Source: Candidatus Thorarchaeota archaeon (GTDB taxonomy: Archaea > Asgardarchaeota > Thorarchaeia > Thorarchaeales > Thorarchaeaceae). Taken from it: a stretch of DNA of 13,035 nucleotides. The position numbers and the translations under genes were made by a program. The first letter of the stretch is position 1. Every line of letters starts with the position of its first letter. Below are positions 1 to 13,035 of this stretch, one piece after another. Location of the stretch: NCBI GenBank assembly GCA_016839605.1, contig JAEOTX010000120.1, positions 1 through 13,035 of the forward strand. Direction: 5' to 3'. The notes below the pieces were generated by a model. That model was given only the letters and a program-made list of their open reading frames with translations. It was not told where the DNA came from and made no database searches.

Positions 1-296
1 CTTCCGAGACCAGCAGTGACCTCTTCTTCCTCTTCTTTCTCTTCTTCCTTCTTCTCATCTTTAGCAGGGGCTGCCTCAGCGGCGCCACCAGCTGCAGGAG
101 CAGCAGCGACAGCCATAGGCATAGCTGCACCCTTTAGAGCCTCATCTATGTCAACATCCTTCAGGGCTGCAAGAAGCGCCTTGACTCTACCCTTGTCAGC
201 TGTAACACCTGCAGCGGTGAGCACAGCTTCCATGTTCTTGATATTGACCTTCTGGCCTGCTTTGTGGAGCAGAAGTGCTGAATATACGTACTCCAT
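1..296 (-). CDS. rpl12: Archaeal ribosomal stalk protein P1 (aL12), 3' end truncated by window edge
   Basis: Not in the ORF track; read by hand from ATG at 296: [31 protein letters not shown]...[16 protein letters not shown]...[35 protein letters not shown]. Classic MEYVY start, Ala-rich hinge and acidic tail. SD GAGGT at 305-309; follows rpl10. Confidence 0.97.
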
Positions 297-316
297 TTCT
301 ATCTACCTCGCTATTA

Positions 317-1333
317 TTATCCAAACAGGCCGCCGAGGCCTGCAACTTCTTCTTCCTCTTCTTCCTCAACCTCTTCAGTTTGCTCTGGCTCCTCTGTTGG
401 AGCCGCTGCAGCTGAAACCGCAGCAGCCTGAACTTGACTGAGGGCTTCGGAGGATATTGCGTCTGGGTCTTTCTCAGAGATTATTGCTGCAAGAGCAAAA
501 ACCTCCGAGTTTGCTTTGGCTAGGAACTCGCCTATCATGTCTGGCTCGAAGAACCCTATCTTCATAGTCAGACTCTTGGCTTCAATATTGGCCTTGGCAA
601 GCAGCACTGGAATGGTTTCCAGAGTGGGATAACCTGTGTTTATTGAAAGGTTGACTGCGTAGTGATGTCCAGCTATGACCTGTCCTAACAAATCACCTAT
701 GTCTACCTCCAGACTGTCACCAGTCATTATTGAACCATCAGCATATGCTGCTATAAGCTTCAGTTGCAGCTCCATTGGTTCGATTCCCAGTCTTGCTAAC
801 ATCAGTGCCATGGCGTTTGAGATTACGTTTCCAGACTTGACGGCAACGGTATCATTAGTGACGTGAATGACACCTCCCTTTACACGAGCTGGAATCTTCA
901 ATGCCGCTAGTTCACTGATGAATGGACCAGGAGCTACACCGGTGTTCATCGCAGGAACGATGATGTCTTTCTGCGCAGTCTGCCCGCCCTTTGCTGGAGC
1001 AGCAGCCTTGTTCTCGCTCAGGAACTTCGTCAGAACGAACGGATCCTGATTGCTGAACATAAAGGCCACAGGACCTGTAACATGCTCAACTAGATCCTTG
1101 ATTCCTTTCTTCTTAGCTGCTTCGAGAGCTCTAATCATCAACGTGTTTCGTGCCATCATCATTGTAGCAGAGCCTCTAAGGCTCTCTCTGATTCCAGAAA
1201 GCTGCTTTGCTCCGACACCCTCCACGTTCACAAGACCAATCATCTCGCTTCCGTCAATTCGGGCTGCGAGATCAGCCACTTTTTCAAGTTTCCATTGTGG
1301 AATTGTCTTCTCATATACTGACGTCTTAATCAC
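317..1333 (-). CDS. rpl10: 50S ribosomal protein uL10 (P0)
   Basis: IPQWK N-terminus, ARNTL, APAKGGQ, NTGVAPGP, LARLGIEP and acidic C-tail EEEEVAGLGGLFG; lies between rpl1 and rpl12. Start uncertain (GTG 1333 or ACG 1324). Confidence 0.97.
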   Translation of the reverse strand: MIKTSVYEKTIPQWKLEKVADLAARIDGSEMIGLVNVEGVGAKQLSGIRESLRGSATMMMARNTLMIRALEAAKKKGIKDLVEHVTGPVAFMFSNQDPFVLTKFLSENKAAAPAKGGQTAQKDIIVPAMNTGVAPGPFISELAALKIPARVKGGVIHVTNDTVAVKSGNVISNAMALMLARLGIEPMELQLKLIAAYADGSIMTGDSLEVDIGDLLGQVIAGHHYAVNLSINTGYPTLETIPVLLAKANIEAKSLTMKIGFFEPDMIGEFLAKANSEVFALAAIISEKDPDAISSEALSQVQAAAVSAAAAPTEEPEQTEEVEEEEEEEVAGLGGLFG

Positions 1334-1992
1334 CTCTCGATTGGCACATCGACCGTTGGTCCCATTGTACTCTTGACGAGTACTCCGCCAACACGGTCTA
1401 GGAATCCCTTGCTATCCACGAAGTTCAAGACGGCTGCAATGTTGTCAGCAATCTCCTTGTCAGCCATTTTCACATGACCAACCTTGACGTGGAATGTTGG
1501 TGTGTTCCTCATCCTTACTCGGACAGTCCGTTGATACTGGTCTACCACAGGACCAAGATCTGCTTGCGGCGGGAAAGGCCTTGGCATCTTCCCTCTGGGT
1601 CCCAAAGCTTGCCCAAGGTATCGCCCCACAAGGGGCATTGCATCCACTGCTGCGATGAAGAAGTCGAAGCCCTTTGCTAAGGCCTTTCTTTCCTTTTTCT
1701 CATCGCCGAGCTTTGGAATCTCATCCTTTGACACAACTCTCTGGACTCCAGCTGCTAGCGCTTTCTCAGCGAACTCACCATCCCCGAAGGCGCAGACCTT
1801 TGCAGGAGGAAACATGGCGTTAGGAAGGACGACCTCTTGATTGAAGCGGTTCTCAGGCTTAGTAACATCAAGTTCCTTCTTCCTGAAGTTGACAGCAACA
1901 TCAAAGCTCTGCTTGAACTTCCTTTTCTTCTTGGTCCCCAGTTTCCTTGCCTCAGCAACGGCAGCCTCAATGGGTTCAACTTTGACTGACAT
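1330..1992 (-). CDS. rpl1: 50S ribosomal protein uL1
   Basis: RKFKQSFD, DFFIA, GRYLGQALGPRGKMP and VKSTMGP motifs; SD GGAGG upstream; operon position. Confidence 0.98.
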   Translation of the reverse strand: MSVKVEPIEAAVAEARKLGTKKKRKFKQSFDVAVNFRKKELDVTKPENRFNQEVVLPNAMFPPAKVCAFGDGEFAEKALAAGVQRVVSKDEIPKLGDEKKERKALAKGFDFFIAAVDAMPLVGRYLGQALGPRGKMPRPFPPQADLGPVVDQYQRTVRVRMRNTPTFHVKVGHVKMADKEIADNIAAVLNFVDSKGFLDRVGGVLVKSTMGPTVDVPIER

Positions 1993-1995
1993 TGA

Positions 1996-2502
1996 TTAGC
2001 CCTCCCTGAGCGGTTCGTCTAACTGACTATCCCAGACACCATCTCTAACATCTTGCTGGAACTCCTTCGCTGTCTTTCCTTCTACTGTAACGCCCATGGA
2101 AACACAGGTTCCTGATACAATCAGAGCAGCACTCTTCATGTTGAGTGCCGATATGTCGCTTGCCTTCCCTTTTGCAATTGACTTGATTTGGTCAATGGTG
2201 AGGTTTCCGATGATGTTTGTGTTTGGCTCTCCCGATCCCTTTGGTTGACCAATCTCTTTCAAGATTAGGGCGCTAGTCGGTGGAGTTCCCACATCAACGG
2301 TAAAGCTCTTGTCATTAGGGTTGACTGTGATTTTGACTGGTACTTTGAGTCCAGCAAATGCCTGAGTGACCTCATTGATTTTAGTAACAACCTGGAAAAT
2401 ATTGACTCCTGTTGGTCCTAGTGCTGGTCCAATGGGTGGTCCTCCAGAGGCTTTGCCACCTTCTACCATCGCATCGACTATAATTGGCTTAGTTTCGCTC
2501 AA
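1996..2502 (-). CDS. rpl11: 50S ribosomal protein uL11
   Basis: VEGGKASGGPPIGPALGPTG, VPVKI, PPTSALI and GTCVSMGVTVEG motifs; TTG start preceded by GGAG. Confidence 0.98.
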   Translation of the reverse strand: MSETKPIIVDAMVEGGKASGGPPIGPALGPTGVNIFQVVTKINEVTQAFAGLKVPVKITVNPNDKSFTVDVGTPPTSALILKEIGQPKGSGEPNTNIIGNLTIDQIKSIAKGKASDISALNMKSAALIVSGTCVSMGVTVEGKTAKEFQQDVRDGVWDSQLDEPLREG

Positions 2503-2506
2503 TTTC

Positions 2507-2617
2507 TCACAACTCCTGATGCAGTAACCTCGATGAGTCCTTGGACACCTCGATTATGGTCGACCTAATGGCACAAGTAGCACTCTGTCCAATTCGGTCT
2601 ACTGCATTCATTGTCAC
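2507..2617 (-). CDS. Candidate small upstream ORF / leader peptide (36 aa; 42 aa from in-frame ATG at 2635)
   Basis: GGGGT SD (2625-2629), 7 nt spacer, then GTG; reads MTMNAVDRIGQSATCAIRSTIIEVSKDSSRLLHQEL; TGA ends 4 nt before the rpl11 TTG. No homology recognised. Confidence 0.3.
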   Translation of the reverse strand: MTMNAVDRIGQSATCAIRSTIIEVSKDSSRLLHQEL

Positions 2618-2657
2618 TTTCTTCACCCCAGACATGACGTCTTGCGTCTATGTCCAA
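2519..2657 (-). promoter_or_regulatory. Structured 5' leader of the rpl11-rpl1-rpl10-rpl12 operon
   Basis: Nested inverted repeats ATGCAGTA (2519-2526)/TACTGCAT (2600-2607) and TTGGACA (2541-2547)/TGTCCAA (2586-2592), plus a second hairpin at 2628-2657. Confidence 0.5.
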
Positions 2658-2689
2658 TTAAGGAGATGATTCGACCGCACATCTAGAAT

Positions 2690-2704
2690 GTTTTAAGCGT
2701 TTTG
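2690..2704 (-). promoter_or_regulatory. Putative BRE/TATA promoter of the rpl11 operon
   Basis: Minus strand CAAAACG-CTTAAAAC in the spt5-rpl11 intergenic region, resembling an A-rich BRE plus TATA box. Confidence 0.5.
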
Positions 2705-2728
2705 GAGTGGCTGAACGGCTCTTGCTTG

Positions 2729-3409
2729 CTAATCGTGAGCCCAGAATGAGTCATCATCCATCTCATCCTTTTCCGCATCAGTCACATCAGCGTCGTCGCT
2801 GACATCGGCATCTTCCTCACGATGTGCTTTTTCGACTATTTTGGCAAAGTCTGCGTGAACACGTATTGGGATTGTATGAGGGCTATCCAGAAGTTCCAGA
2901 ATGAGCTCTTCCTTTGCCGCGTCAACTCGTGCAACCTTGGCTCTTTCTCCCTTGAATGGTCCAGAAATGATTTCCACAACATCTCCGGTCGAAATTCCCT
3001 CTGCCGCTGGTTTGGGCACTAGGAACTTGTCAATCTCTTCGAAGCTGACCTTACCACCCACGCGACCTCGTACATGAGGTACACCAGAGATTGCAATCTC
3101 CACATCTCTGAACTCAAGGGTCTCAAGAAACACATAACCTCGTAGAGTTTCAGGCACAAGAATCGCTTTCACGCGTCCTAGAAGCTGGTTAGTCGAAACA
3201 AGCTTGGGCTCTCCAGTCTTCTTTTTCTTCTTCTTCTTGCAGCTGCTCATATGTTCCAGGGTGGCCTCTTTGGAAGAAAACTCCTCAGAACAGAAAGGAC
3301 ACTCCCAGACATCTGTTTCACCAATGACTGCTGTGGTGATGAGATCTGTGACTCCCTTTTCCTGGCCAATTGTCGTCCTTACCGCATAGATACTGCTTCT
3401 TGTTTCCAA
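2729..3409 (-). CDS. spt5: Transcription elongation factor Spt5/NusG with zinc-finger insertion and acidic C-tail
   Basis: NGN domain (IYAVRTTIGQE...AILVPETLRGYVFLE...VPHVRG) and KOW (GDVVEIISGPFKGERAKV); lies between secE and rpl11. Start reassigned to TTG 3409 (SD GGGGGT 6 nt upstream). Confidence 0.96.
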   Translation of the reverse strand: METRSSIYAVRTTIGQEKGVTDLITTAVIGETDVWECPFCSEEFSSKEATLEHMSSCKKKKKKKTGEPKLVSTNQLLGRVKAILVPETLRGYVFLETLEFRDVEIAISGVPHVRGRVGGKVSFEEIDKFLVPKPAAEGISTGDVVEIISGPFKGERAKVARVDAAKEELILELLDSPHTIPIRVHADFAKIVEKAHREEDADVSDDADVTDAEKDEMDDDSFWAHD

Positions 3410-3452
3410 ATAGAGACCCCCGTGATACAATGGATTCTGGATAGACTGGTAA

Positions 3453-3668
3453 CTAAAACAGTCCTGCCAGCGATGTTAGTATCCAGCTTTCTGTACCCCA
3501 TCGAGATGTGAGTGTGTTCATGAATATCTGAACAATGAAGCTCAGCATGCCAACTAGAATCATAGCCAGCACCGTGATCTTGGTACTTGTCCAGAGTTCT
3601 GTTCTGGATGGCTTGGTAGCTAGCTTGAGGATGCGTCTGCTCTCCTGAATGAATTCACTGATACCCAA
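3453..3668 (-). CDS. secE: Protein translocase subunit SecE / Sec61-gamma
   Basis: EFIQESRRILKLATKPSRTEL amphipathic helix and KP motif, then one TM segment; ftsZ-secE-spt5 context. Likely start TTG 3668 after GGATGTGA. Confidence 0.95.
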   Translation of the reverse strand: MGISEFIQESRRILKLATKPSRTELWTSTKITVLAMILVGMLSFIVQIFMNTLTSRWGTESWILTSLAGLF

Positions 3669-3720
3669 ATGTTTCACATCCTGGTGATTCAATACCCCTG
3701 ATTGTGGGATTCGGGTGCTC

Positions 3721-4917
3721 TCAGTCTAGGTCTTCTTTTAACCCTTCCTGCTTGTCCAAGTCGGGTTCATTCAACCTCTGTAGTCCCAGGTCTGTCTTTA
3801 GGTCATCTGCTAACGGCATAACTCTCTCCGTCTTATCGAAGACATATGGAGAGCTCACACCAGAGGCAATAATGGTCACGCGAATCCGATCTTCAAGTTC
3901 TGGAGAGATCAATGCGCCATAGATGATTTCTACTCCCGGATTCACTTGTTCAGTCACCAGTTCTACAACCCGTTTTGCCTCAGCTAACTGAAGGTCAGTG
4001 CTGCCACTAACGTTGACAAGGATGTTACGCGCATTTTCAATTGAAACCTCAATCAGTGGGTTCCTCAGAGCATTGATCACGGCTTCCTCAGCTCTATCTT
4101 CGCCCTCTCCCTCGCCAAGTGCGATGATTGACACACCACCATTCTTCATTGTAGTTCGAACATCAGCAAAGTCCAAGTTCACTAGTCCGGGCTTTGAGAT
4201 TAATTCCGCTATGCCCTTTACAGCTCTCACCAAGACTTCATCAGCCACCATGAAAGCCTCAGGCATAGAAAGGTCTGGTGCAATCTCTAGGAGCTTTTCA
4301 TTGGGTATAGCGATCAGTGTGTCAACATGCTCCATTATTGCATTGAGACCACGCTGAGCATTTCTTCTTCTTGTGTCCCCTTCTACCTCGAAAGGCAGAC
4401 ACACAATGGCAACTGTCAATGCGCCATTCTCTTTTGCAGCCTTGGCAACCAACGGTGCTGCTCCTGTTCCTGTACCGCCACCCATTCCTGCAGTTACGAA
4501 CACGAGGTCTCCTCGAACTACATCCTTTATGACCTCATACGACTCCAGACCCGCTGCTTCGCCTACATCTGGATCATTTCCTGCTCCAAGTCCTCCACAG
4601 GTTTCCCTGCCGAGAAGCAGCTTATGGTTTGAACTACAGAAATAGAGGTCCTGTGCATCTGTGTTTGCGGCGAGTGTTTCTGCCCCTTCCACTCCCACTT
4701 GCATCAGACGTGTTACTGCGTTATTACCCGCGCCGCCGACTCCGACTACAAGTATTCTGGCGCTCACAGACTCTAGTATATTAGCCAGATCCTCATCAGT
4801 TGTGGCTGATTTTCCAATGGCCGTCTTGGAGGATTTACTAGGGGTATCACGCTTTCCAGTTGTTGTTGGTGTCGTACGAAGGACCTCTTCCAATAATGGA
4901 TGCATTAGCTCACTCAC
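3721..4917 (-). CDS. ftsZ: Cell division protein FtsZ (FtsZ1-type)
   Basis: GVGGAGNN, NTDAQDL, GLGAG, AGMGGGTGTG signature and T7 loop NLDFADV all intact; upstream of secE as for archaeal ftsZ1. Start GTG 4917 or ATG 4905. Confidence 0.98.
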   Translation of the reverse strand: MSELMHPLLEEVLRTTPTTTGKRDTPSKSSKTAIGKSATTDEDLANILESVSARILVVGVGGAGNNAVTRLMQVGVEGAETLAANTDAQDLYFCSSNHKLLLGRETCGGLGAGNDPDVGEAAGLESYEVIKDVVRGDLVFVTAGMGGGTGTGAAPLVAKAAKENGALTVAIVCLPFEVEGDTRRRNAQRGLNAIMEHVDTLIAIPNEKLLEIAPDLSMPEAFMVADEVLVRAVKGIAELISKPGLVNLDFADVRTTMKNGGVSIIALGEGEGEDRAEEAVINALRNPLIEVSIENARNILVNVSGSTDLQLAEAKRVVELVTEQVNPGVEIIYGALISPELEDRIRVTIIASGVSSPYVFDKTERVMPLADDLKTDLGLQRLNEPDLDKQEGLKEDLD

Positions 4918-4953
4918 ACCTTCTGTTCAGTGTTAATATCGGTGTATTCTCCT

Positions 4954-4988
4954 AAGAAAAAGTGGAATACTACGTCGGTAATACCGAC
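4954..4988 (-). terminator. Possible terminator or operator between pfkB and ftsZ
   Basis: Perfect dyad GTCGGTA-A-TACCGAC (4974-4988) at the pfkB stop, followed on the minus strand by TTTTTCTT (4954-4961). Confidence 0.3.
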
Positions 4989-5959
4989 TATCGCCTACCC
5001 TTTCCCTTTCTGCGTTTCTTGGGCTTGAAAGTCCTCAATACTGAGTCAATAGACACACGATTCTTCTTGAGGAGTCTGGCGGTTTCATCCATTGTAGGCT
5101 GTCCGCTTTGCGCGCCTTTCTTTGTTATCGTAAGGGCAGCAACGGCATTTCCAACATGAAGGGCTTGTTCGATTCTCTCAGAGCGTGTCCAGGCTGTGAT
5201 GAAACCAGCTGCAAAAGCATCTCCAGCTCCCAAGGTATCTACAGCAGGGACATCAAACACTGGAGAGGTACAGTACTCAAATCCATCCGTGGCAACAGCC
5301 CCTTTTGCCCCCTTCTTGATCACTACAATCCCTGGTATTGTCTTTGCAAAAGCCTTCAGAGCTTTTTCACTTGGATTGACATTGAAGTAATTGCGTAGCT
5401 CTCCTTGGTTTAGGAAGAGAAGATCAGTTTTGCGGAGAATTGATTTGAAGTTCAATGAACCAGCAGCCCTTCCCGGATCAAATGAGAAGATCATCCCATT
5501 TGCAGTAGAAACCTCTTGAAGCCGCGAAGCCATCATCGGAAATGCACCAGCGAGGTGCATAACTGTTGATTTTACCAAGTATTCTTCATCGATGACATGC
5601 TTCTCCAAGAATCGATTAGCACCAGGTTCTGAAACTACAACTCTGTCTCCATTTCGTTGCTCCGCTAGGAAAAAGATTCCAGTTGGCTGATTGTCTAGGA
5701 CTAGTACAGAACTTGTGTCCACACCTACATTTGACAGGTCTTTCAGAGCTTGCTGCCCATAGAAGTCATCACCAACACAGCCAACAATTCCTGTGCCTAC
5801 ACCAAGTCTAGCAATCTGGGATGCGAAGTTCGATGCAGACCCTCCAAATGATATGAGTCCCTTCTTGCTTGTCACATGCTCATTCTTCGCTGGAATCCTG
5901 CTGACTTGCATTATGACATCGACATTGATTCTGCCGATAGCAACAACCTCTCGCACCAA
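4988..5959 (-). CDS. PfkB/ribokinase-family carbohydrate or nucleoside kinase
   Basis: GRINVD, GGSASN, GCVGDDFYG, DPG, FLNQGE, KKGAKGA and DTLGAGDAF (anion hole and catalytic Asp); substrate not assignable. Confidence 0.93.
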   Translation of the reverse strand: MVREVVAIGRINVDVIMQVSRIPAKNEHVTSKKGLISFGGSASNFASQIARLGVGTGIVGCVGDDFYGQQALKDLSNVGVDTSSVLVLDNQPTGIFFLAEQRNGDRVVVSEPGANRFLEKHVIDEEYLVKSTVMHLAGAFPMMASRLQEVSTANGMIFSFDPGRAAGSLNFKSILRKTDLLFLNQGELRNYFNVNPSEKALKAFAKTIPGIVVIKKGAKGAVATDGFEYCTSPVFDVPAVDTLGAGDAFAAGFITAWTRSERIEQALHVGNAVAALTITKKGAQSGQPTMDETARLLKKNRVSIDSVLRTFKPKKRRKGKGRR

Positions 5960-5971
5960 TTCAATTGCCTC

Positions 5972-6898
5972 TCACACTATAAGTGCCATAATCCCCTTCT
6001 GCGCATGTAGACGATTCTCAGCTTGATCAAAGACAACGCTATACTTAGAATCATCCATTATATCAGAGGTCAGCTCTTCATCGCGATGCGCGGGCAAGCA
6101 GTGCATCACAATCACATCTTTGTTTGCTTTGCCAACAAGAGATCTATTGACTTGAAATGGCATCAGGGCGTCTTCTTTCTCCTTGGATTTTTCCTGACCC
6201 ATGCTGAAGAATGTGTCAGTGTATATCACGTCAGCTCCCTTAACCGCTTCAGTTGGATCATTCACTACTTCCACGGTTGTGTTGTGCGTCTTACTCAACA
6301 CATCAGCTTTCTTGATGATATCCTCAGTGGGAGTGTAGCCTTTTGGTGAACCAATAGTGACATCCATTCTCATGATTGTGCAGCCCTGCATGATTGAATT
6401 ACTCACATTGTTTGAATCACCAACGTACGCAATCTTGAACCCCTCTAGCTTTCCCTTGTGTTCCTCAATTGTCATCATGTCAGCCATGATTTGACAGGGA
6501 TGATTGTAGTCAGATAGTCCATTGATCACTGGAACAGTGGCATGCTCCGCCAGTCCAGTCACTTCGTCGTGACCGAAGACTCGAGCCATAATCACATCAC
6601 AATATCTGCTCAGGACCATGGCCGTATCTGCAATTGTTTCTCCTCTGCCAAGTTGGGTGCCACTTGGCTGAAGATATAATGCATGACCCCCGAGCTGAGT
6701 CATTCCCACTTCAAAAGACACCCGAGTCCTTGTGGAAGACTTCATGAAAATCATAGCAAGTGACTTGCCTTTCAGAATCTCATGGGGTTCTCCATTCTTC
6801 TGTTTGCGTTTCAGTTCATGCGCCTTATCTAGCATGGCTCTCAGTTCATCTCTACTGAAATCTGAAAGATCTACAAAACTTCTACCCTTGAAATCCAA
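5972..6898 (-). CDS. argF: Ornithine carbamoyltransferase
   Basis: SSTRT carbamoyl-phosphate motif, HPCQ, DxxxSMG, HCLP and QAENRLH; TTG start 7 nt after GAGGT. Confidence 0.96.
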   Translation of the reverse strand: MDFKGRSFVDLSDFSRDELRAMLDKAHELKRKQKNGEPHEILKGKSLAMIFMKSSTRTRVSFEVGMTQLGGHALYLQPSGTQLGRGETIADTAMVLSRYCDVIMARVFGHDEVTGLAEHATVPVINGLSDYNHPCQIMADMMTIEEHKGKLEGFKIAYVGDSNNVSNSIMQGCTIMRMDVTIGSPKGYTPTEDIIKKADVLSKTHNTTVEVVNDPTEAVKGADVIYTDTFFSMGQEKSKEKEDALMPFQVNRSLVGKANKDVIVMHCLPAHRDEELTSDIMDDSKYSVVFDQAENRLHAQKGIMALIV

Positions 6899-6949
6899 AA
6901 TGGTAACCTCTACTGTTGGATTGACACCGAGGGTTCAGATTGTGCCGCG

Positions 6950-6957
6950 TAATAAAA
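6950..6957 (-). promoter_or_regulatory. Putative internal TATA box for argF-pfkB
   Basis: TTTTATTA on the minus strand, 52 nt upstream of the argF start in a 71-nt intergenic gap. Confidence 0.45.
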
Positions 6958-6969
6958 CTGTCCACCTGT

Positions 6970-7878
6970 TTAATCCGCTACGAGTCTCTGTGCAAACCAC
7001 TCCGGCTCGAACCTGCGCAGGTCATCATAACCCTGTCCGACTCCAATGTAGATCACAGGTCGACCAGTCACAAATGCCACTGAAAGCGCTGCTCCACCTG
7101 ATGGGTCTGCATCCACTTTGGTTAGAATAGCTCCATCAATCTCTATGGCATCATTGAACTCCTTTGCTTGAGAGAGCGCATCATTACCGGCAAGAGCATC
7201 TCCGACAAAGATTTTCAGGTCCGGTTCAGTAACCCTCGCAATCTTCTGCATCTCGGCGATTAGGTTCTTGTTACTCTGCATTCTTCCAGCGGAGTCTATC
7301 AGAACAATGTCAATCCCTTTTGCACGTGCGTGGGAAATGGCATCATATGCCACAGCTGCTGCATCGGATCCATAATTCTGCTTGATGACTCTGATACCAA
7401 GCCTGTTTGCATGTTCCTCAAGCTGTTCTATGCTTCCAGCTCGGAATGTATCTCCAGCGGCAATAACGATGGAAAAACCGTTCTTCTTGTAGAGATTTGC
7501 CACCTTTGCCAATGTTGTCGTCTTGCCAGTCCCATTCACACCCACAAAGAGAATGACTGTTAGTTCTCCATTTACCTTCTTGTCAGAAGCATACTGAATT
7601 GGGTCAAGTGGATGTTCAGGTGTCAGGACTTCCATAATTGACTCATAGATTGCAGTTCTGAATAGCTTGCCAGTCTTTTCCAGACGGCCGGTTCGCTTCC
7701 CGATGAGCTTCTCCTTTGTCAGGTTGCATATGTGCTCAGCAACATCGACTGCAACGTCGTTTTGAATCAGAACCATCTGAAGGGCCCATACCGCATCAGC
7801 GAGATTCTTCTCGTTCAGCTCCTTGGTGGTGGCTTTGGTAACAGCAGAGTCCATCGCACCACGGAGCTTCTCGAACAC
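6970..7878 (-). CDS. ftsY: Signal recognition particle receptor FtsY (NG domain only)
   Basis: GVNGTGKTTT, DTFRAG, DSAGR, TKVD and GVGQGYDDL SRP-GTPase motifs; follows pfdA; GTG start. Confidence 0.98.
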   Translation of the reverse strand: MFEKLRGAMDSAVTKATTKELNEKNLADAVWALQMVLIQNDVAVDVAEHICNLTKEKLIGKRTGRLEKTGKLFRTAIYESIMEVLTPEHPLDPIQYASDKKVNGELTVILFVGVNGTGKTTTLAKVANLYKKNGFSIVIAAGDTFRAGSIEQLEEHANRLGIRVIKQNYGSDAAAVAYDAISHARAKGIDIVLIDSAGRMQSNKNLIAEMQKIARVTEPDLKIFVGDALAGNDALSQAKEFNDAIEIDGAILTKVDADPSGGAALSVAFVTGRPVIYIGVGQGYDDLRRFEPEWFAQRLVAD

Positions 7879-7879
7879 G

Positions 7880-8317
7880 CTATTGTGCCCCCTGGGCCTG
7901 CATCTGCGTTGCTAGCTGTCTCATCTGTGCGTCAATGGCCTCTGCACGGTTGGCGAGCTTTCCAAGTTCGGAAATCAGGCTCTCATACTGCTTTCCCAGA
8001 CTCTCGATGGCTTGTTCTACTCCTTCAATGGCTTGTTCTAAGCTCTGCTCGATTCTCACTCCGCTACCTAGAGCTCTCGTCACTTTCGAGGTGTCTATTA
8101 GCTTTGCCTGTACGAAGATGCCACCTCCAACATTGAACAGTGTTTCTTCGCCCTCTTTTCTGGTCTCAATCTCTTTAAGCACTGCAAATCCGTTTTGGTA
8201 CTGGTTCAAAAGGACCTGTGTCAGTTCTATCTGTTGTCGAATGGTGTTCAGATTTGACTCAGCGAGTTGCTGTTCCACATAGAGTTTCTGAAGAAGATTC
8301 TGTTGCTCCTCCGTCAT
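7880..8317 (-). CDS. pfdA: Prefoldin alpha subunit
   Basis: Coiled coils flanking beta-hairpins (LFNVGGGIFVQA...LGSGVRIE); conserved position between eL20 and ftsY; start overlaps the eL20 stop (TAATG). Confidence 0.95.
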   Translation of the reverse strand: MTEEQQNLLQKLYVEQQLAESNLNTIRQQIELTQVLLNQYQNGFAVLKEIETRKEGEETLFNVGGGIFVQAKLIDTSKVTRALGSGVRIEQSLEQAIEGVEQAIESLGKQYESLISELGKLANRAEAIDAQMRQLATQMQAQGAQ

Positions 8318-8559
8318 TACAGTTCGCTCTCCAGTCCGAGAATCCTACGGAGTTCCAGATTTGTGGCCTCTTCGGGTTTGATCTCAGCAATCTCACTGAT
8401 AGTGATATCCCTTCTTTTCACTCTGTGGCGACTGCCAAGTTCAGAGTAGATCTTCTCTATAACATGCGCCTCTTTAAGCGCAATCATTTCTTTTGAGAAA
8501 GTGAACTTTCTCTTCAGCTTACGATATTCGCCTTTCGCTCTCCATACCTTAGAACTCAT
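8317..8559 (-). CDS. rpl18a: 50S ribosomal protein eL20 (L18Ae/LX)
   Basis: FSKE...EKIYSELGSRHRVKRRDITI motif; between eif6 and pfdA. Confidence 0.95.
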   Translation of the reverse strand: MSSKVWRAKGEYRKLKRKFTFSKEMIALKEAHVIEKIYSELGSRHRVKRRDITISEIAEIKPEEATNLELRRILGLESEL

Positions 8560-8573
8560 CTGAAGACCACCTT

Positions 8574-9239
8574 TTAGACAAAGCCCAGGACTTGACTGAT
8601 GTGAGCCAATTCTACACCCGTTGTTTCTGACCCAACAATCAAGCTGTCCATGTTCGCCATTACACCTAAACTAGTGTAGGGGCTGCCTCGATTAACTGTG
8701 CCAACCTCGACGTGCACTTTTAACAGCTGTGATATCTTCTCAATCTCACTGGTAGTAGCCATAGGATGAACTATTGCTCCCTGATTCGTTGTTGCTGAGT
8801 TAGAGCCTACTATAGGTAGATTGGCCACAGTACTTGGGATGACCTCAACGTCAAGAGCATCAGATATCTTTGCTCTTGCATTCTTGTCAAAATCAGGATG
8901 GCAGATAGCGCCATTATCATTGGCTAAGATGATGTTGCCAAGAGCTGTCATCTTGTTATCAATCCAATCCACCCGAATGTCAGGATACTCTTTTAGTGCT
9001 GCAAGCTCGTCGTCATTTGTTGTGTAAGGAAGAAGAATTCCGTTTGAATTAGCTACACAGACAAGACCGATCACATCTAGAGTGGCAATAGTTGACTGTA
9101 CCAATGGAAGATTGAAGACACGTTCCATTGTTTCTATGGACCTCTCTGACATGTTTGGAGAAACAAACACATACCTATCTGTGGCGATTCCAAAGGCTCC
9201 AACATTCGAATCGCCCTCGAAATCGTATCGGGCGATCAT
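8574..9239 (-). CDS. eif6: Translation initiation factor 6 (aIF6)
   Basis: ANSNGILLP, ALGNIILANDNGAICHP, GTVNRGSPY and GSETTGVEL pentein repeats. Confidence 0.97.
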   Translation of the reverse strand: MIARYDFEGDSNVGAFGIATDRYVFVSPNMSERSIETMERVFNLPLVQSTIATLDVIGLVCVANSNGILLPYTTNDDELAALKEYPDIRVDWIDNKMTALGNIILANDNGAICHPDFDKNARAKISDALDVEVIPSTVANLPIVGSNSATTNQGAIVHPMATTSEIEKISQLLKVHVEVGTVNRGSPYTSLGVMANMDSLIVGSETTGVELAHISQVLGFV

Positions 9240-9245
9240 TTACAA

Positions 9246-9647
9246 CTACCCCTCTGCTAGATAAACTCGGACAAGGTTATCTGAGTTCTTGGTTGCCCTA
9301 ATTCGTATCCTTCTCGGAGGTTTCTGAATTCCCCTATCCCAGATCCTCTCATTCACCTCAGGTTGAATCACAACCTCCTCAGGTTTCATGTGTCGTTCCA
9401 CGAATTCTCTGAGTATTCTTACAGCCCTGTTTGATCTGCGGAGTCTGCTACCTGTCCAGTATGCCTTTCTCAGGGGTACTGTGTAAATCCGTTCATCGAT
9501 GATTTCTTCCTCTGGGATGACTTCGGCAGGTTCGACTTCTGTTGCATCTGGCCTATCTTCTACGGCCTCAATCTCCTCGTCCTCGCCAATCTCTTCAATA
9601 TCTTCGAGTTCGGGAAGCTCCTCTTCGATCTCCTTCTCTTCAATCAT
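9246..9647 (-). CDS. rpl31e: 50S ribosomal protein eL31 with acidic N-terminal extension
   Basis: ERIYTVPL...RAVRILREFVERHMK...VNERIWDRGIQKPPRRIRIR. Confidence 0.96.
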   Translation of the reverse strand: MIEEKEIEEELPELEDIEEIGEDEEIEAVEDRPDATEVEPAEVIPEEEIIDERIYTVPLRKAYWTGSRLRRSNRAVRILREFVERHMKPEEVVIQPEVNERIWDRGIQKPPRRIRIRATKNSDNLVRVYLAEG

Positions 9648-9661
9648 CTACGTACACCTGA

Positions 9662-9817
9662 CTACGGCTTGAGCTTGGTCTCACGCCAATTTCGCTGCTT
9701 TGGTGTTCTTCTCACTTTTCCACCAGACTTCACTACAGCCCAGGTAGGCACTGAAGAATTGCTCTTGAGTGCTCTTGCCATTCTGAGTTTCTTCGCGAGG
9801 GGTTTGTTCCTTGCCAT
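9662..9817 (-). CDS. rpl39e: 50S ribosomal protein eL39
   Basis: Below the ORF-track cutoff; hand-translated [51 protein letters not shown] (51 aa) with VPxW and RNWR motifs; SD GGTGA. Confidence 0.96.
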
Positions 9818-9835
9818 TTTCTTCACCATTTGCAG

Positions 9836-10174
9836 CTATCTGAACGAGATTTTCCTCTCTCGTTCCTGTCCCGTTATTTGTTGCAGCAACGTCTTCAGTT
9901 GCTCATCAGTCACTCTTGCCTTTAGCCTTCCAGATGAGGCCAATTGTATAAGCTGCAGTTCTATCTGTTCCGCAACTTGGGGCTTGACCATTCTGATGTT
10001 TGAGAGCCTTGAACGAGCCTCGGGAGTCAAAATCTGTCTGAGAATTGCCTCCTTCTGAGCCTGTGCTTCGGCAACCTGTTGGTCCCTGACCTGGTCTTCA
10101 AGTGCCTGTTCTTTCAGAGATGCAAGTTTCCTCTGTCGAATCTCATCAAGCTCCTCGTCGCTCAGCACACTCAC
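9836..10174 (-). CDS. PDCD5-like dsDNA-binding protein
   Basis: DEELDEIRQRKL...ILRQILTPEARSRLSNIRMVKP...IELQLIQLA...TDEQLKTLL; conserved position between rps19e and rpl39e. Start could be GTG 10174, GTG 10168 or CTG 10165. Confidence 0.95.
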   Translation of the reverse strand: MSVLSDEELDEIRQRKLASLKEQALEDQVRDQQVAEAQAQKEAILRQILTPEARSRLSNIRMVKPQVAEQIELQLIQLASSGRLKARVTDEQLKTLLQQITGQERERKISFR

Positions 10175-10194
10175 CTACTACGCCAAGATGGCGT

Positions 10195-10647
10195 CTAGTA
10201 GTTCTCCAGCTCGGGTATAGCCTTCGAGAGCTCCCTCTTCAATGTCGCAGACAGCTTATCCATGTAAGACCTACCTACGTTGGTCATCTCACGGCCTTTG
10301 TTTCCACGCTTCAGGATAAAGCCCGCCTTTTCCAGCTGCTGCAGAGCAGTTCGTACAACTGCCCCACTTCCTTTGTGGAACTTGTTGGGCTTTGTACCGC
10401 GTCGCTTCTTCCCGCCATAGTCAATACGGAGACGTTCTGTCCCAATAGGCCCCTTAAGATAGATCTTCCTGAGAATACTTGCGCATCTCATGAACCACCA
10501 GTCTGGATTGTCTGGTGCTCGCTCCTTATGTGCACCCGTCTTTACGAAGAGAGCCCATTCTGGAGGTTCGATCTCATCTCGAGACCTAAGGTCCTGTGCA
10601 AGTCGTCGTATCATGACGTTAGGTGGGATATCATAGACCGTAGGCAT
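10195..10647 (-). CDS. rps19e: 30S ribosomal protein eS19
   Basis: MPTVYDIP, PPEWALFVKTGAHKERAP, DWWFMRCASILRK and LQQLEKAG motifs; start reassigned to ATG 10647 (SD GGTGA). Confidence 0.97.
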   Translation of the reverse strand: MPTVYDIPPNVMIRRLAQDLRSRDEIEPPEWALFVKTGAHKERAPDNPDWWFMRCASILRKIYLKGPIGTERLRIDYGGKKRRGTKPNKFHKGSGAVVRTALQQLEKAGFILKRGNKGREMTNVGRSYMDKLSATLKRELSKAIPELENY

Positions 10648-10738
10648 CTGTTTGTCACCATTTCGTTTGAGGGGGTCACCGCACATAGACTGAGCTAGTG
10701 GCCTACCTCAGAAGGCTGCCCTCGTCAAAATTAGTTGC

Positions 10739-10746
10739 CATAAAAG
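10739..10746 (-). promoter_or_regulatory. Putative TATA box for the rps19e sub-operon
   Basis: CTTTTATG on the minus strand ~92 nt upstream of the rps19e ATG, just outside the inferred IS left end. Confidence 0.4.
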
Positions 10747-10761
10747 GTTGACGGCAGCTGC

Positions 10762-10799
10762 TACAAACCCAAACAAACCCATACATAAGTTAGAAACCC
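10762..10799 (+). repeat. Left-end ~10-bp periodic direct repeats
   Basis: TACAAACCC (10762-10770), AACAAACCC (10772-10780), degenerate TACATAAGT, AGAAACCC (10792-10799). Confidence 0.7.
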
Positions 10800-10839
10800 G
10801 TATTCGGTAAAGACTATACCTCTCCAGATTATGTATGAG

Positions 10840-10847
10840 CTTATAAC
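10840..10847 (+). promoter_or_regulatory. Putative TATA box for leaderless tnpB
   Basis: CTTATAAC about 30 nt upstream of the tnpB ATG, which has no SD. Confidence 0.5.
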
Positions 10848-10875
10848 ATCTAATCGAAACTAAATTCTGAGCCTC

Positions 10876-12096
10876 ATGCTGGTGACCAAGGCTTACAGGT
10901 ACGAACTGGACCCGAACAACCGTCAGAGGTCGCATCTTCACCAACATGCAGGAGTCGCCCGTTTTGCCTACAACTGGGGTCTCGAACATCGCATCCAGCT
11001 CTTCAAGGACAATCATGGAACTGAGCGGTTCACCGATGCTATGAAGCAGCACAAGTTCCTGAACAGCCTTAAGGAGAGCCAGTTTCCCTGGATGTACCAG
11101 TGTTCCAAGTGCGCACCCCAAGAAGCCCTCAGAGACCTGCATAGGGCCTTCAAGAACTTCTATCGTGGACTGAAGACCGGGCAGAGAGTGGGCTTTCCGC
11201 GATTCAAGAGGAAGGGTGTCAGGGACAGTTTCAGACTCACTGGGACAATACGATTCGAGGGGAGGAAGATTCGACTTCCACGGCTTGGAGTGATTCGAAT
11301 AAAAGAGAGAAAGAGGAGCTACATCAGTGGACGGTTCCTCTCAGCTACGGTGCGAAGAAGAGCAGACAGATGGTTTGTGTCGGTCACTGTGGAGGAGGAG
11401 TTTCCGGACCCAGAACCCCCTGCTGGAGGGACTGTGGGAGTGGACCTTGGAGTCAAGACTCTTGCTACTGTTTCTGATGGGAATACCTTTGCAAATCCTC
11501 GAGCCCTGCGAAGAAGACTTAGGAAGCTGAAACAACTGTCAAGAAGTCTGTCGAGAAAAAGGAAGGGGAGTACGAACCGAGAGAAGGCAAAACTCAGACT
11601 GGCCAAGATGTACCTGAAGGTCTTCAACATCCGACAGGACACTCTGCATAAGGTCACGACCTATCTTGCCAAGAGCCACAGCAGGATAGTGATCGAGGAC
11701 CTGAACGTGTCTTGGATGTTGAAGAACCGAAGGCTGGCACGAGCTATTGCGGATGTGGGATTCTATGAGTTCAGAAGACAACTGGAATACAAGTGCAAGT
11801 GGTATGGGTCAGAGCTCGTTGTGACCTCAAGGACATTTCCCTCATCGAAAATGTGTTCACGCTGTGGACACAGGAAAAAGGCGCTATTACTGTCACAGAG
11901 GGAGTATCACTGTGAAGTGTGCGGTCTGAGGATCGACAGGGATCTGAATGCTGCCGTGAATCTAGTCGCCGTCAGTTTGCCGGAGACTCAAAACGCCTGT
12001 GGAGAGGACGTAAGACTCTTAACGAGTCCTTTGGGAGTCGTAGAGCAGACCTCAGCGAAGCAGGAACCGAACATCAGCCCTAGACTCAATGTCTAG
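10876..12096 (+). CDS. tnpB: RNA-guided endonuclease TnpB
   Basis: N-terminal KAYRYEL...GVARFAYNWGL, GFPRFK, RuvC-I GVDLG, RuvC-II IVIEDL, Zn ribbon CSRC...CEVC and RuvC-III DRDLNAA; D-E-D triad intact. Confidence 0.97.
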   Translation: MLVTKAYRYELDPNNRQRSHLHQHAGVARFAYNWGLEHRIQLFKDNHGTERFTDAMKQHKFLNSLKESQFPWMYQCSKCAPQEALRDLHRAFKNFYRGLKTGQRVGFPRFKRKGVRDSFRLTGTIRFEGRKIRLPRLGVIRIKERKRSYISGRFLSATVRRRADRWFVSVTVEEEFPDPEPPAGGTVGVDLGVKTLATVSDGNTFANPRALRRRLRKLKQLSRSLSRKRKGSTNREKAKLRLAKMYLKVFNIRQDTLHKVTTYLAKSHSRIVIEDLNVSWMLKNRRLARAIADVGFYEFRRQLEYKCKWYGSELVVTSRTFPSSKMCSRCGHRKKALLLSQREYHCEVCGLRIDRDLNAAVNLVAVSLPETQNACGEDVRLLTSPLGVVEQTSAKQEPNISPRLNV

Positions 12097-12138
12097 GATT
12101 GTCTAGGTTTCGGGGAACGGTTGTCGCAACGTGCCAAG
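11966..12138 (+). ncRNA. TnpB omegaRNA/reRNA: scaffold to 12120 plus flank-derived guide
   Basis: Overlaps the tnpB 3' end. Nested stems CCGT/ACGG, CCTG (11996)/CAGG (12061), GAGG/CCTC, GACTC/GAGTC and CCTAGAC/GTCTAGG. The GCCTGTGGAG...GAAGCAGGAA pattern is typical of these scaffolds. 5' end and guide length are approximate. Confidence 0.75.
12079..12110 (+). repeat. Right-end hairpin and 10-bp tandem repeat
   Basis: CCTAGAC-TCAAT-GTCTAGG hairpin (12079-12097); GTCTAGGATT GTCTAGGTTT tandem (12091-12110). Confidence 0.8.
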
Positions 12139-12146
12139 GAAATTCC

Positions 12147-12416
12147 CTATAGCTTGAACAGAACTGCAGTGTTTCCACGTATTCCGACCAAATGAGAACC
12201 AGATCTTTTTACAAGGGACTCGAAGATCTCCTTTTTGGAATTCGTTGCAGCAGCTGACCGAAGTAGACGGACCTTGATGTATTTGTGTTTCTTGAGGAGC
12301 CTCTTCGTTTCCTTGATTATACCTTCAGAGAGACCGCTCTTTCCTATCTGCATGATAGCGGGGTCTTGCCATGCGATGTTTATTCTGGTCTTGTCTGGTT
12401 CTTTTGTAGATCCCAT
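12147..12416 (-). CDS. yhbY: YhbY/CRM-domain RNA-binding protein
   Basis: QIGKSGL, IKVRLLR and GNTAVLF motifs; conserved rnp4-yhbY-rps19e context. Confidence 0.9.
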   Translation of the reverse strand: MGSTKEPDKTRINIAWQDPAIMQIGKSGLSEGIIKETKRLLKKHKYIKVRLLRSAAATNSKKEIFESLVKRSGSHLVGIRGNTAVLFKL

Positions 12417-12458
12417 GTCCGTTCGACCTGCTCGAGTGAGGTGTCCTCTTTAGCGTTC

Positions 12459-12776
12459 CTATCTGACGTAATATCTTGTGATGTTACCACAAGCAATACA
12501 AGTCACTGTGAGATGCTTCGATCGGTTGTTTCGTATCCTTACACGACAGTTCTCACCGGGGACTAGTACCATCCCACACCGGCGACAAATCTTCTTCTTG
12601 ATTTCTTGCGGAACTTTGATGCGGACCTTCTGCGCGACTTTGAAAGCCACCTTCATACGCTGTCGTGCGCCTTCTGGGTCTGTCTTGGCTATTTCCGAAG
12701 CCTGTTTCCATAGGAGCTTTATCCTAGCCCTGGCTAGACGCTTGGCCTCTGACTGTCTAGGTCGTTTCTTGGGCAC
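12459..12776 (-). CDS. rnp4: Ribonuclease P protein component 4 (Rpp21)
   Basis: LARARIKLL helix, KKKICRRC...LVPG.NCRVR...VTCIACG.ITRY zinc ribbon; GTG start with SD GAGG. Confidence 0.95.
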   Translation of the reverse strand: MPKKRPRQSEAKRLARARIKLLWKQASEIAKTDPEGARQRMKVAFKVAQKVRIKVPQEIKKKICRRCGMVLVPGENCRVRIRNNRSKHLTVTCIACGNITRYYVR

Positions 12777-12810
12777 CGAATTTCCTCGAATCGATGAGTT
12801 ATCCGATACA

Positions 12811-12819
12811 TCTTAAATC
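12811..12819. promoter_or_regulatory. Putative bidirectional TATA box between rnp4 and nep1
   Basis: TCTTAAATC reads CTTAAAT (+) and ATTTAAGA (-); centred in a 77-nt divergent gap. Confidence 0.45.
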
Positions 12820-12853
12820 GTTCGTGACTACCACCAAATAAGGTGGGTCTGCC

Positions 12854-13035
12854 ATGCTCCATGTCATCCTTCTTGAGTCAGCAATCGAACTAGTTCCTAA
12901 AAATCTGACCTCCACAAAGCTTGTCCAGAAACATGCTAGTAGGAGAGGAAAGAAACCAAATCAACTCCTGCTCGATCAATCGCACCATGGACAGGTAATG
13001 ACCAAGTTGGAGAATGGAGACCGCCGTGGGCGGCC
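12854..13035 (+). CDS. nep1: 16S rRNA pseudouridine N1-methyltransferase Nep1/EMG1, truncated by window edge
   Basis: Hand-translated MLHVILLESAIELVPK...HASRRGKKPNQLLLDQSHH...LENGDRRGRP; matches Nep1 ESxxELVP, LLDxSxH and RGRP(D) motifs; SD AGGTGG at 12841-12846. Confidence 0.93.
   Translation, partial: MLHVILLESAIELVPKNLTSTKLVQKHASRRGKKPNQLLLDQSHHGQVMTKLENGDRRGR

Follow-up and report, generated by a model that had tools for sequence, protein, structure and literature searches.

A putative C2HC zinc-finger module embedded in the NGN domain of Spt5 in the archaeal family Thorarchaeaceae

Of all transcription factors, only Spt5/NusG is conserved across the whole of life, and its archaeal form is commonly regarded as a minimal NGN–KOW protein. 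The spt5 gene considered here lies on the reverse strand of a 13,035-nucleotide stretch of a Candidatus Thorarchaeota archaeon (assembly GCA_016839605.1, contig JAEOTX010000120.1, positions 1 to 13,035), which is called the window throughout, and its product carries an insert within the NGN domain. A preliminary description had placed a C2HC finger and a run of seven lysines inside this domain, between helix 1 and strand 2, and the sequence, the frame and the Spt5 identity are as it stated. The open reading frame (ORF) at window positions 2729-3430 of the reverse strand is uninterrupted and its translation agrees with that account. Residues are numbered from the TTG codon at 3409, which gives a protein of 226 amino acids; the longer ORF, starting at 3430, is P0001, and the range 3179-3322 given in the preliminary description corresponds to residues G37-L84 of that longer ORF. 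The parts of the gene are as follows, in window coordinates.

2729..3409, reverse strand: spt5 gene, 226 codons plus stop, TTG start at 3409.
3326..3409, reverse strand: first part of the NGN domain (strand 1 and helix 1), residues 1-28, matching residues 2-24 in the solved archaeal Spt5 structures.
3173..3325, reverse strand: family-specific insert, residues 29-79, made of stalk, putative zinc finger, Lys run and return strand; missing from solved Spt5 and from the sister family.
3239..3310, reverse strand: core of the C2HC finger, residues 34-57, assigned from ligand conservation, sub-threshold C2H2 Pfam matches and the AlphaFold2 fold.
3299-3301 (C37), 3290-3292 (C40), 3251-3253 (H53) and 3239-3241 (C57), reverse strand: codons of the candidate ligands, with the core Phe F44 at 3278-3280.
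3218..3238, reverse strand: Lys7 run, residues 58-64, codons AAG AAG AAG AAG AAA AAG AAG, a predicted prolongation of the finger helix.
3173..3217, reverse strand: return arm of the stalk, residues 65-79, TGEPKLVSTNQLLGR, assigned from conservation and the AlphaFold2 strand 69-72.
3005..3172, reverse strand: second part of the NGN domain, residues 80-135; it contains the Spt4-pairing strand 2 (VKAILVPE) and Glu96, which is invariant.
2825..3004, reverse strand: linker and KOW domain, residues 136-195 (Pfam KOW PF00467, 31.2 bits against a cut-off of 22.3; ratio of nonsynonymous to synonymous substitution rates, dN/dS, 0.006).
2732..2824, reverse strand: acidic C-terminal tail, residues 196-217, followed by the conserved DDSFW motif (218-226); family-specific.

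The gene encodes the housekeeping Spt5 of its Thorarchaeota (Asgard) genome. The protein scores 148.5 bits with the NCBIfam equivalog TIGR00405 (Spt5; cut-off 69.95), in an alignment that begins only at residue 86, C-terminal of the insert, and 57.7 bits with the Pfam NGN family PF03439 (cut-off 22.4), whose match is split by the insert. The gene is single-copy, with one match in this metagenome-assembled genome (MAG), which is 80% complete.

The motif C-x2-C-x3-F-x8-H-x3-C is found at window positions 3239-3301 of the reverse strand and is followed by the seven Lys codons. It occurs once over the six frames of the window, where composition alone would give about 0.21 occurrences, and its chance expectation within the 226-codon spt5 gene is about 0.002. 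Against the solved archaeal Spt5 chains, the first ~20 residues of the window protein correspond to chain residues 2-24 and the alignment resumes at chain residues 30-33, so that about 50 extra residues fall into the loop joining helix 1 to strand 2. The distance from the strand-1 motif to the GY(I/V)F motif is 82 residues here and 37 in most of 150 representative homologues, so that the net insertion amounts to about 45 residues.

An AlphaFold2 model of Spt5, built on a 97-sequence alignment, has a mean predicted local distance difference test (pLDDT) score of 80.6 over the full length. Its first NGN part consists of strand 6-12 and helix 17-30 (pLDDT 81-95). The insert, modelled at pLDDT 78-87, begins with strand 34-36 and continues through a CPFC knuckle, strand 43-44, a helix (47-61) that extends into the Lys run, and the return strand 69-72. 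The strands predicted in the flanks agree with the earlier proposal that these form a beta stalk, and the finger modelled alone takes the same topology (pLDDT ~80). As modelled, the insert is thus a two-strand stalk that carries a C2HC finger and a helix extension, the latter bearing a Lys/Arg run in most genera. The acidic tail (198-221) falls below pLDDT 50.

By its sequence the finger is a C2HC variant and not a strict C2H2 finger. The classical spacing and the core Phe four residues past the second Cys are both present, whereas the strict pattern C-x2-4-C-x12-H-x3-5-H is not, since the fourth ligand is Cys, or Glu in one genus (g25), and never His. Among Pfam models the best match, below its threshold, is PF22034, the C2H2 finger of B-129 from the archaeal virus SSV1 (21.1 bits vs 27), accompanied by zf-C2H2_4 (19.7 vs 27) and zf-C2H2 (14.2 vs 25.2). 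When the insert model was compared with the Protein Data Bank (PDB) by Foldseek, nearly all of the top-ranked entries were beta-beta-alpha fingers (C2H2, CHHC and UBZ), with a root-mean-square deviation of 0.8-1.3 Å over 23-26 residues and E values of at least 1. The top match of a VIA search was the C2H2 finger of the archaeal virus AFV1 (AFV1p06, 2LVH; Z 3.8 over 39 residues, non-significant), and an atlas feature search with the insert pointed only weakly (score 0.77) to clusters of C2H2 type.

Conservation follows the predicted architecture of the module. In an alignment of 44-48 distinct sequences, C37, P38, C40, F44 and H53 are invariant and W35, E42, T50, M54 and C57 are conserved in at least 90%, as are the stalk residues G30, E31, D33, P68, S72, N74, L76, G78 and R79. 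Three of the four proposed ligands are therefore invariant among orthologues and the fourth nearly so. The exception lies in genus g25, represented by three species (L047, L094, L095), one of them with a complete chromosome, where all three have Glu exactly at the fourth-ligand position; two other sequences have H-x4-C in place of H-x3-C. The ligand codons vary synonymously (TGT/TGC, CAC/CAT). In the deep-branching genus g29 (L089-L091) the finger is retained and the Lys run is swapped for an acidic stretch. Across 51 sequences the net charge of the finger proper averages -1.6 (range -6 to +2), that of the run after it +3.7 (-3 to +7), and that of the C-terminal tail -12.7 (-19 to -7). The helix surface positions of the finger are variable across the family.

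Selection was measured on 29 close pairs with unsaturated synonymous sites, an analysis of all pairs being saturated. The dN/dS of the insert is 0.085 and that of its most constrained section, the stalk, 0.067, while the NGN and KOW cores lie at 0.006-0.009. The acidic C-terminal linker and tail reach 0.34, and the terminal SFW motif 0.059. The insert is under purifying selection.

In a search of the whole class with the insert only, 83 of the 85 species representatives of the Thorarchaeaceae were positive, in all 16 genera, with exactly one match per genome and no internal stop. The two negative genomes are assembly gaps, the gene being split at contig ends, without its insert region, in one case and no spt5 assembled in the other. 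In the congener G016 (contigs C389 and C94), spt5 is broken over two contig ends with loss of the insert region, possibly at a break in the repetitive AAG tract. All 24 family relatives examined (9 genera) align to the window Spt5 over its full length, whereas the sister-family genome and other Asgard families align only from about residue 86, and the same class-wide search found the insert absent from the sister family (one genome, L026). The presence in 83 of 85 representatives and the absence from the sister genome indicate that the insert is a fixed character of the Thorarchaeaceae, gained after the split from that sister family; this bears out the earlier suggestion of a lineage-specific elaboration. 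A HMMER search of 1.84 billion representatives recovered the insert in only two proteins, P0002 and the fragment P0003, and no further protein matched through the finger region. P0003 (191 amino acids) follows Thorarchaeaceae Spt5 from residue 1 to 128, finger included, before turning into unrelated sequence; its contig may be chimeric or disrupted. When this MAG was searched for a paralogue from which the finger could have come, the spt5 locus was the sole match.

These data bear directly on the idea that the insert is an assembly artefact or a neutral piece of junk. In its favour, the poly-AAG tract is a repeat, and the assembly of one relative does break inside spt5, but the same in-frame insert recurs without stops in 83 genomes from many independent studies, and neither its dN/dS of 0.085 nor the synonymous changes in its ligand codons fit neutral sequence; the probability left to this idea is negligible, and the possibility of an artefact raised in the preliminary description is refuted. 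It is very probable that the insert is a real, folded and selected zinc-finger module. The module probably binds zinc, the ligation itself being putative.

The helix 1-strand 2 loop is a recurrent accretion site of archaeal Spt5, of which the Thorarchaeaceae finger is one instance. In other archaeal Spt5 proteins the same loop is expanded by inserts of about 20-150 residues that are unrelated in sequence to the Thorarchaeaceae finger. The Heimdallarchaeota protein P0006 has about 77 helical residues there, and P0017 a KOW-like segment. Loop inserts are also found in three large clusters labelled Thermoproteota (P0058, P0068 and P0117), with members in Tara marine metagenomes, and in P0018, P0033, P0057, P0069 and P0113. 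Among these inserts only that of P0068 shows a possible metal-binding pattern (CxxC...HxxxxH). The statement that archaeal Spt5 normally has a loop of a few residues therefore holds for most archaea, but not for these several lineages. The Spt5 protein P0125 has an N-terminal CxxC...CxxC extension, which is not a loop insert.

The gene stands in the order ftsZ-secE-spt5-rpl11-rpl1-rpl10, with genes for a PfkB kinase, OTCase, FtsY, prefoldin, eIF6 and L31e on the upstream side of ftsZ, and 226 nucleotides (window 2503-2728) separate spt5 from rpl11. The start column at 3407-3409 is kept in nearly all of about 50 Thorarchaeota loci, as TTG in most relatives and as ATG or GTG in a few, and several relatives have a stop codon directly 5' of it. 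Because of this conservation and these upstream stops, the start is assigned to the TTG codon at 3409 (residue 8 in the longer ORF). Gene callers that reach to the upstream TTG at 3430 append seven spurious residues to spt5. Farther along the window, at 10876-12096 of the forward strand, an ORF of 406 amino acids encodes a TnpB-type transposon protein with HTH_OrfB_IS605, OrfB_IS605 and Cas12f1-like TNB domains; it lies at the border of the conserved cluster of ribosomal and translation genes.

The loop that carries the insert leads into the strand by which Spt5 pairs with Spt4. Searches of this MAG with the family model PF06093 and with a congener's protein found no Spt4, although Spt4 is present in 23 of 24 family relatives and in all of five further genomes; the check for spt4 that had been proposed thus fails in this genome and succeeds in nearly all of its relatives, and the absence is most simply explained by incompleteness. 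Replacement of Spt4 by the insert is ruled out by the same counts. The Spt4 of the Thorarchaeaceae has an insertion of its own, eight residues with the consensus PGR-x3-ED (loci L076-L087 and L097-L101), which sits between the Spt5-pairing strand and the start of the helix that carries the Ser of the acid-dipole contact. This insertion is absent from the Spt4 of the sister family and of 11 other Asgard genomes examined, and each genus checked, g29 and g25 among them, has it together with the Spt5 insert.

The complex of the Spt5 NGN domain (residues 1-135) with the congener's Spt4 was predicted with an interface score (ipSAE) of 0.66, against 0.00 for the best control; contacts agree to at least 93% between runs and the partner's pLDDT is at least 81. 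Among solved complexes 58 of 80 attain this mark, as do 2 of 110 mismatched pairs, and for such a textbook pair the score may reflect memory of solved structures. In the predicted complex, Spt5 residues 80-85 run antiparallel to Spt4 residues 38-33, and E96, invariant in 97 sequences, contacts Spt4 residues 51-53. The latter contact matches the acid-dipole interaction described for the Methanocaldococcus jannaschii Spt4/5 complex (Hirtreiter 2010, PMC2896526). The canonical Spt4/5 interface is thus predicted to be intact. The position of the insert near this interface had been foreseen in the preliminary description and is supported by the predicted complex and by that earlier work; the altered use of Spt4 that was suggested with it does not take the form of a loss of Spt4, which is present in nearly all relatives.

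Both insertions exit from the same end of the paired strands, where Spt5 residue 80 faces Spt4 residue 38, so that they must be spatial neighbours. Confident contacts between the Spt5 insert and Spt4 are found only at the base of the insert (Spt5 28-29 and 77-78 with Spt4 39-41 and 47), and the predicted complex is compatible with the finger touching Spt4 as well as with its standing clear of it. This geometry raises the possibility that the two insertions merely pack together as a brace, stabilising or enlarging the heterodimer interface without any new ligand. Such a role would suit the shared exit point, the contacts at the insert base, the stalk as the most constrained section of the insert, and the occurrence of both insertions in all genera examined and of neither in the sister family. 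Yet the confident contacts with Spt4 do not include the finger or the Lys run, a metal-binding domain of 25 residues with a charged arm exceeds what a brace requires, and the Spt4 loop is unaltered where the charge of the run flips in g29. A function as a brace alone is consequently quite unlikely. A compensating charge change in the Spt4 loop was also looked for and not seen: the loop is unchanged in g29, where the Lys run is acidic.

The placement of the module on RNA polymerase (RNAP) can be derived from complexes already described. The NGN domain attaches to the clamp coiled-coil and bridges the cleft, while Spt4 is directed away from RNAP and the upstream DNA follows a positive surface of Spt4/5 (PMC3094117). 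As Spt4 points away from the enzyme, the finger is expected to be solvent-exposed on the RNAP-distal face, with clamp binding undisturbed. In the Pyrococcus furiosus elongation complex the NGN domain touches upstream DNA through H12, R64, H65/66 and R67, and these contacts matter for activity (PMC11162788). Domain II of the Thermotoga maritima NusG, inserted in its NGN domain, binds double-stranded DNA at 0.04 µM and has been modelled near upstream DNA (PMC5224480). From its position, the finger could reach nucleic acid only by means of the stalk and the arm.

The explanation favoured here proposes that the stalk and finger would enlarge and stiffen the Spt4/5 heterodimer, and that the charged arm, usually basic, would contact nucleic acid leaving the polymerase in a non-specific manner, most plausibly the upstream DNA duplex. 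These contacts would raise the retention of Spt4/5 on the elongation complex, as domain II does in Thermotoga NusG. The finger itself would more likely act as a structural scaffold or a surface for protein contacts than as a reader of bases, its surface being acidic or variable. Taken as a whole, module and mechanism together, this is considered the best explanation, held tentatively and with a confidence that stops somewhat short of even. The tethering to nucleic acid in particular is possible rather than probable.

Several observations weigh against this explanation. No Pfam C2H2 model reaches its gathering score on the insert, and no significant structural match for the insert-only model came from VIA or, as is usual for some 25 residues, from Foldseek. 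The Glu ligand of g25 indicates that full tetrahedral Cys/His coordination is not strictly needed. The finger proper is acidic on average, with a variable helix surface. In some genera the Lys run carries little net charge (0 to +1), and in g29, where the finger is retained, it is acidic (net -3); as the run is not universal, nucleic-acid tethering cannot be a function conserved family-wide. Lastly, by topological reasoning, the insertion point would lie at the end of helix 1 that is remote from H12 and the other residues that contact DNA in Pyrococcus. The acidity of the finger, together with the acidic run of that one genus, also makes the binding of DNA or RNA by the finger itself, which had been entertained earlier, doubtful.

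The same features lend themselves to another proposal, in which the finger is a docking surface that would bring a lineage-specific partner to RNAP during elongation, and the Lys run would be accessory. The partner could be the ribosome, a factor for termination, a protein of chromatin or one specific to Asgard archaea. FOG-type, MOZ and other CCHC fingers act as protein-protein interaction surfaces. Finger and stalk persist in every genus even where the run reverses its charge, the acidic or variable finger surface lacks a conserved basic recognition face, and the module is placed on an accessible RNAP-distal face adjoining Spt4. In addition, the Spt5 insert, the Spt4 loop and the SFW tail co-occur, which suggests a co-evolving interaction surface. 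On the other hand, apart from the ligands, the core, W35, P38, E42 and T50, the conserved surface positions of the finger are few, which is weak for a specific interface. Recruitment of a partner is accordingly judged somewhat unlikely.

The third element, the acidic tail of about 30 residues that ends in SFW, is specific to the Thorarchaeaceae, and the sister family is without the motif. Residues D220, S221, F222 and W223 are conserved in at least 90% of sequences, and the general form of the motif is (D/E)(S/G)FW. The Heimdallarchaeota Spt5 P0006 likewise has an acidic C-terminal stretch with aromatic residues after it.

It could be argued that the tail and the run form an intramolecular switch, in which the basic run would bind the protein's own acidic tail or SFW motif and so be autoinhibited until engagement with the elongation complex, in analogy to the acidic tails that regulate basic DNA-binding domains. 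A basic run and a strongly acidic tail (-7 to -19) with SFW are both family-specific, and the more basic the run, the more acidic the tail tends to be (Spearman rho -0.53 over 51 related, non-independent sequences, uncorrected for phylogeny and hence only a lead). Autoinhibition is known in Thermotoga maritima NusG and in RfaH (PMC7819879). Against the switch, the AlphaFold2 model gives no confident docking of the tail, whose residues 198-221 stay under pLDDT 50, and g29 retains the acidic tail and the FW motif in spite of its acidic run, so that the switch seems improbable. Elf1 too combines a zinc module with a basic and an acidic tail; its replacement by the Spt5 module was ruled out, as PF05129 is present in 24 of 24 relatives and in this MAG.

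A ubiquitin-like partner had also been suggested for the finger, which would then read ubiquitin-like modifiers on the transcription machinery in the manner of UBZ/NEMO-type CCHC fingers. The insert has the ligand set and spacing of CCHC ubiquitin-binding fingers, C-x2-C-x12-H-x3-C, and the UBZ domains of WRNIP1, FAAP20, Rad18 and NDP52 are among the weak structural matches of the insert; however, these matches are non-significant, classical DNA-binding fingers rank equally with them, and the residues past the His are not conserved in the finger. Moreover, ubiquitin (PF00240; other beta-grasp modifiers not searched) is found in none of 25 genomes of the Thorarchaeaceae and not in the one sister-family genome, as opposed to 13 of 15 other Asgard genomes. 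Ubiquitin reading by the finger is hence very improbable.

A broader scheme would have the finger and arm of Spt5, the loop of Spt4 and the SFW tail arise together at the base of the Thorarchaeaceae and form a composite docking platform on the RNAP-distal face of Spt4/5, coupling elongation to, for example, chromatin, termination or translation. This scheme is unlikely; if it were true, it would offer a prokaryotic parallel to the eukaryotic Spt5, which gained acidic and repeat regions for partner recruitment, and one case of a wider unrecognised trend in which archaeal lineages elaborate the same NGN loop. The change in Spt4 and the acidic Spt5 tail arose along with the finger insert, and the loop has also expanded independently in Heimdallarchaeota, Thermoproteota and other lineages; taken together, these changes form a concrete case of an elongation factor acquiring accessory surfaces. 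The loop could also serve as a permissive site for engineering. The immediate reach is modest, the module being restricted to one family of uncultivated organisms.

In agreement with the preliminary description, which knew of no earlier report, a full-text literature search found no description of the insert; subscription journals lie mostly outside such a search, and a prior description is possible. A 2026 survey of elongation-factor domains in 218 Asgard proteomes (PMC13289920) does not describe it, although it does report an analogous zinc-finger insertion in metazoan Spt6, and it is likewise absent from a paper devoted to this gene cluster in Asgard archaea. A search of PDB sequences found no similarity to the insert. 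The C2HC finger embedded in this Spt5 is well supported as a real, selected module, with a functional role that is only inferred.

Several known systems invite comparison. With classical C2H2 fingers the Thorarchaeaceae finger shares the spacing (W)-x-C-x2-C-x3-F-x8-H-x3-(ligand) and the predicted beta-beta-alpha fold. It differs from them in its last ligand, which is Cys, or Glu in one genus, and in a Thr in place of the usual core Leu; it is also single, embedded in another domain and without a conserved basic recognition face. The S1 insertion domain (SID) of metazoan Spt6 is likewise a zinc-finger-like module of about 50 residues within a conserved domain of an elongation factor and confined to one clade (PMC13289920), although protein, host domain and clade are all different and homology is not implied.

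Domain II of NusG in Thermotoga maritima and Aquifex aeolicus is, like the present insert, a lineage-specific domain within NGN. These bacterial domains, which in line with the preliminary description we take to be inserted after strand 2, whereas the Thorarchaeaceae insert lies before it, are larger and bear no relation to it in sequence or fold, and bacteria are without Spt4. The full-length Thorarchaeaceae model aligns to the NusG structures 1M1G and 2XHC through the NGN and KOW domains only. The bacterial domains bind nucleic acid non-specifically (PMC5224480).

The closest comparison is with the solved archaeal proteins, namely the Spt5 of P. furiosus (3P8B), M. jannaschii (4ZN1/3LPE) and Thermococcus kodakarensis (9BCT). 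The Thorarchaeaceae protein has in common with them the NGN domain and single KOW, the secE-spt5-rpl11 context, the Spt4-binding strand 2 with its conserved Glu (E96) and, by prediction, the canonical heterodimer. It adds to this plan a finger module of about 45 residues and an acidic SFW tail of about 30, neither of which is found in any solved Spt5.

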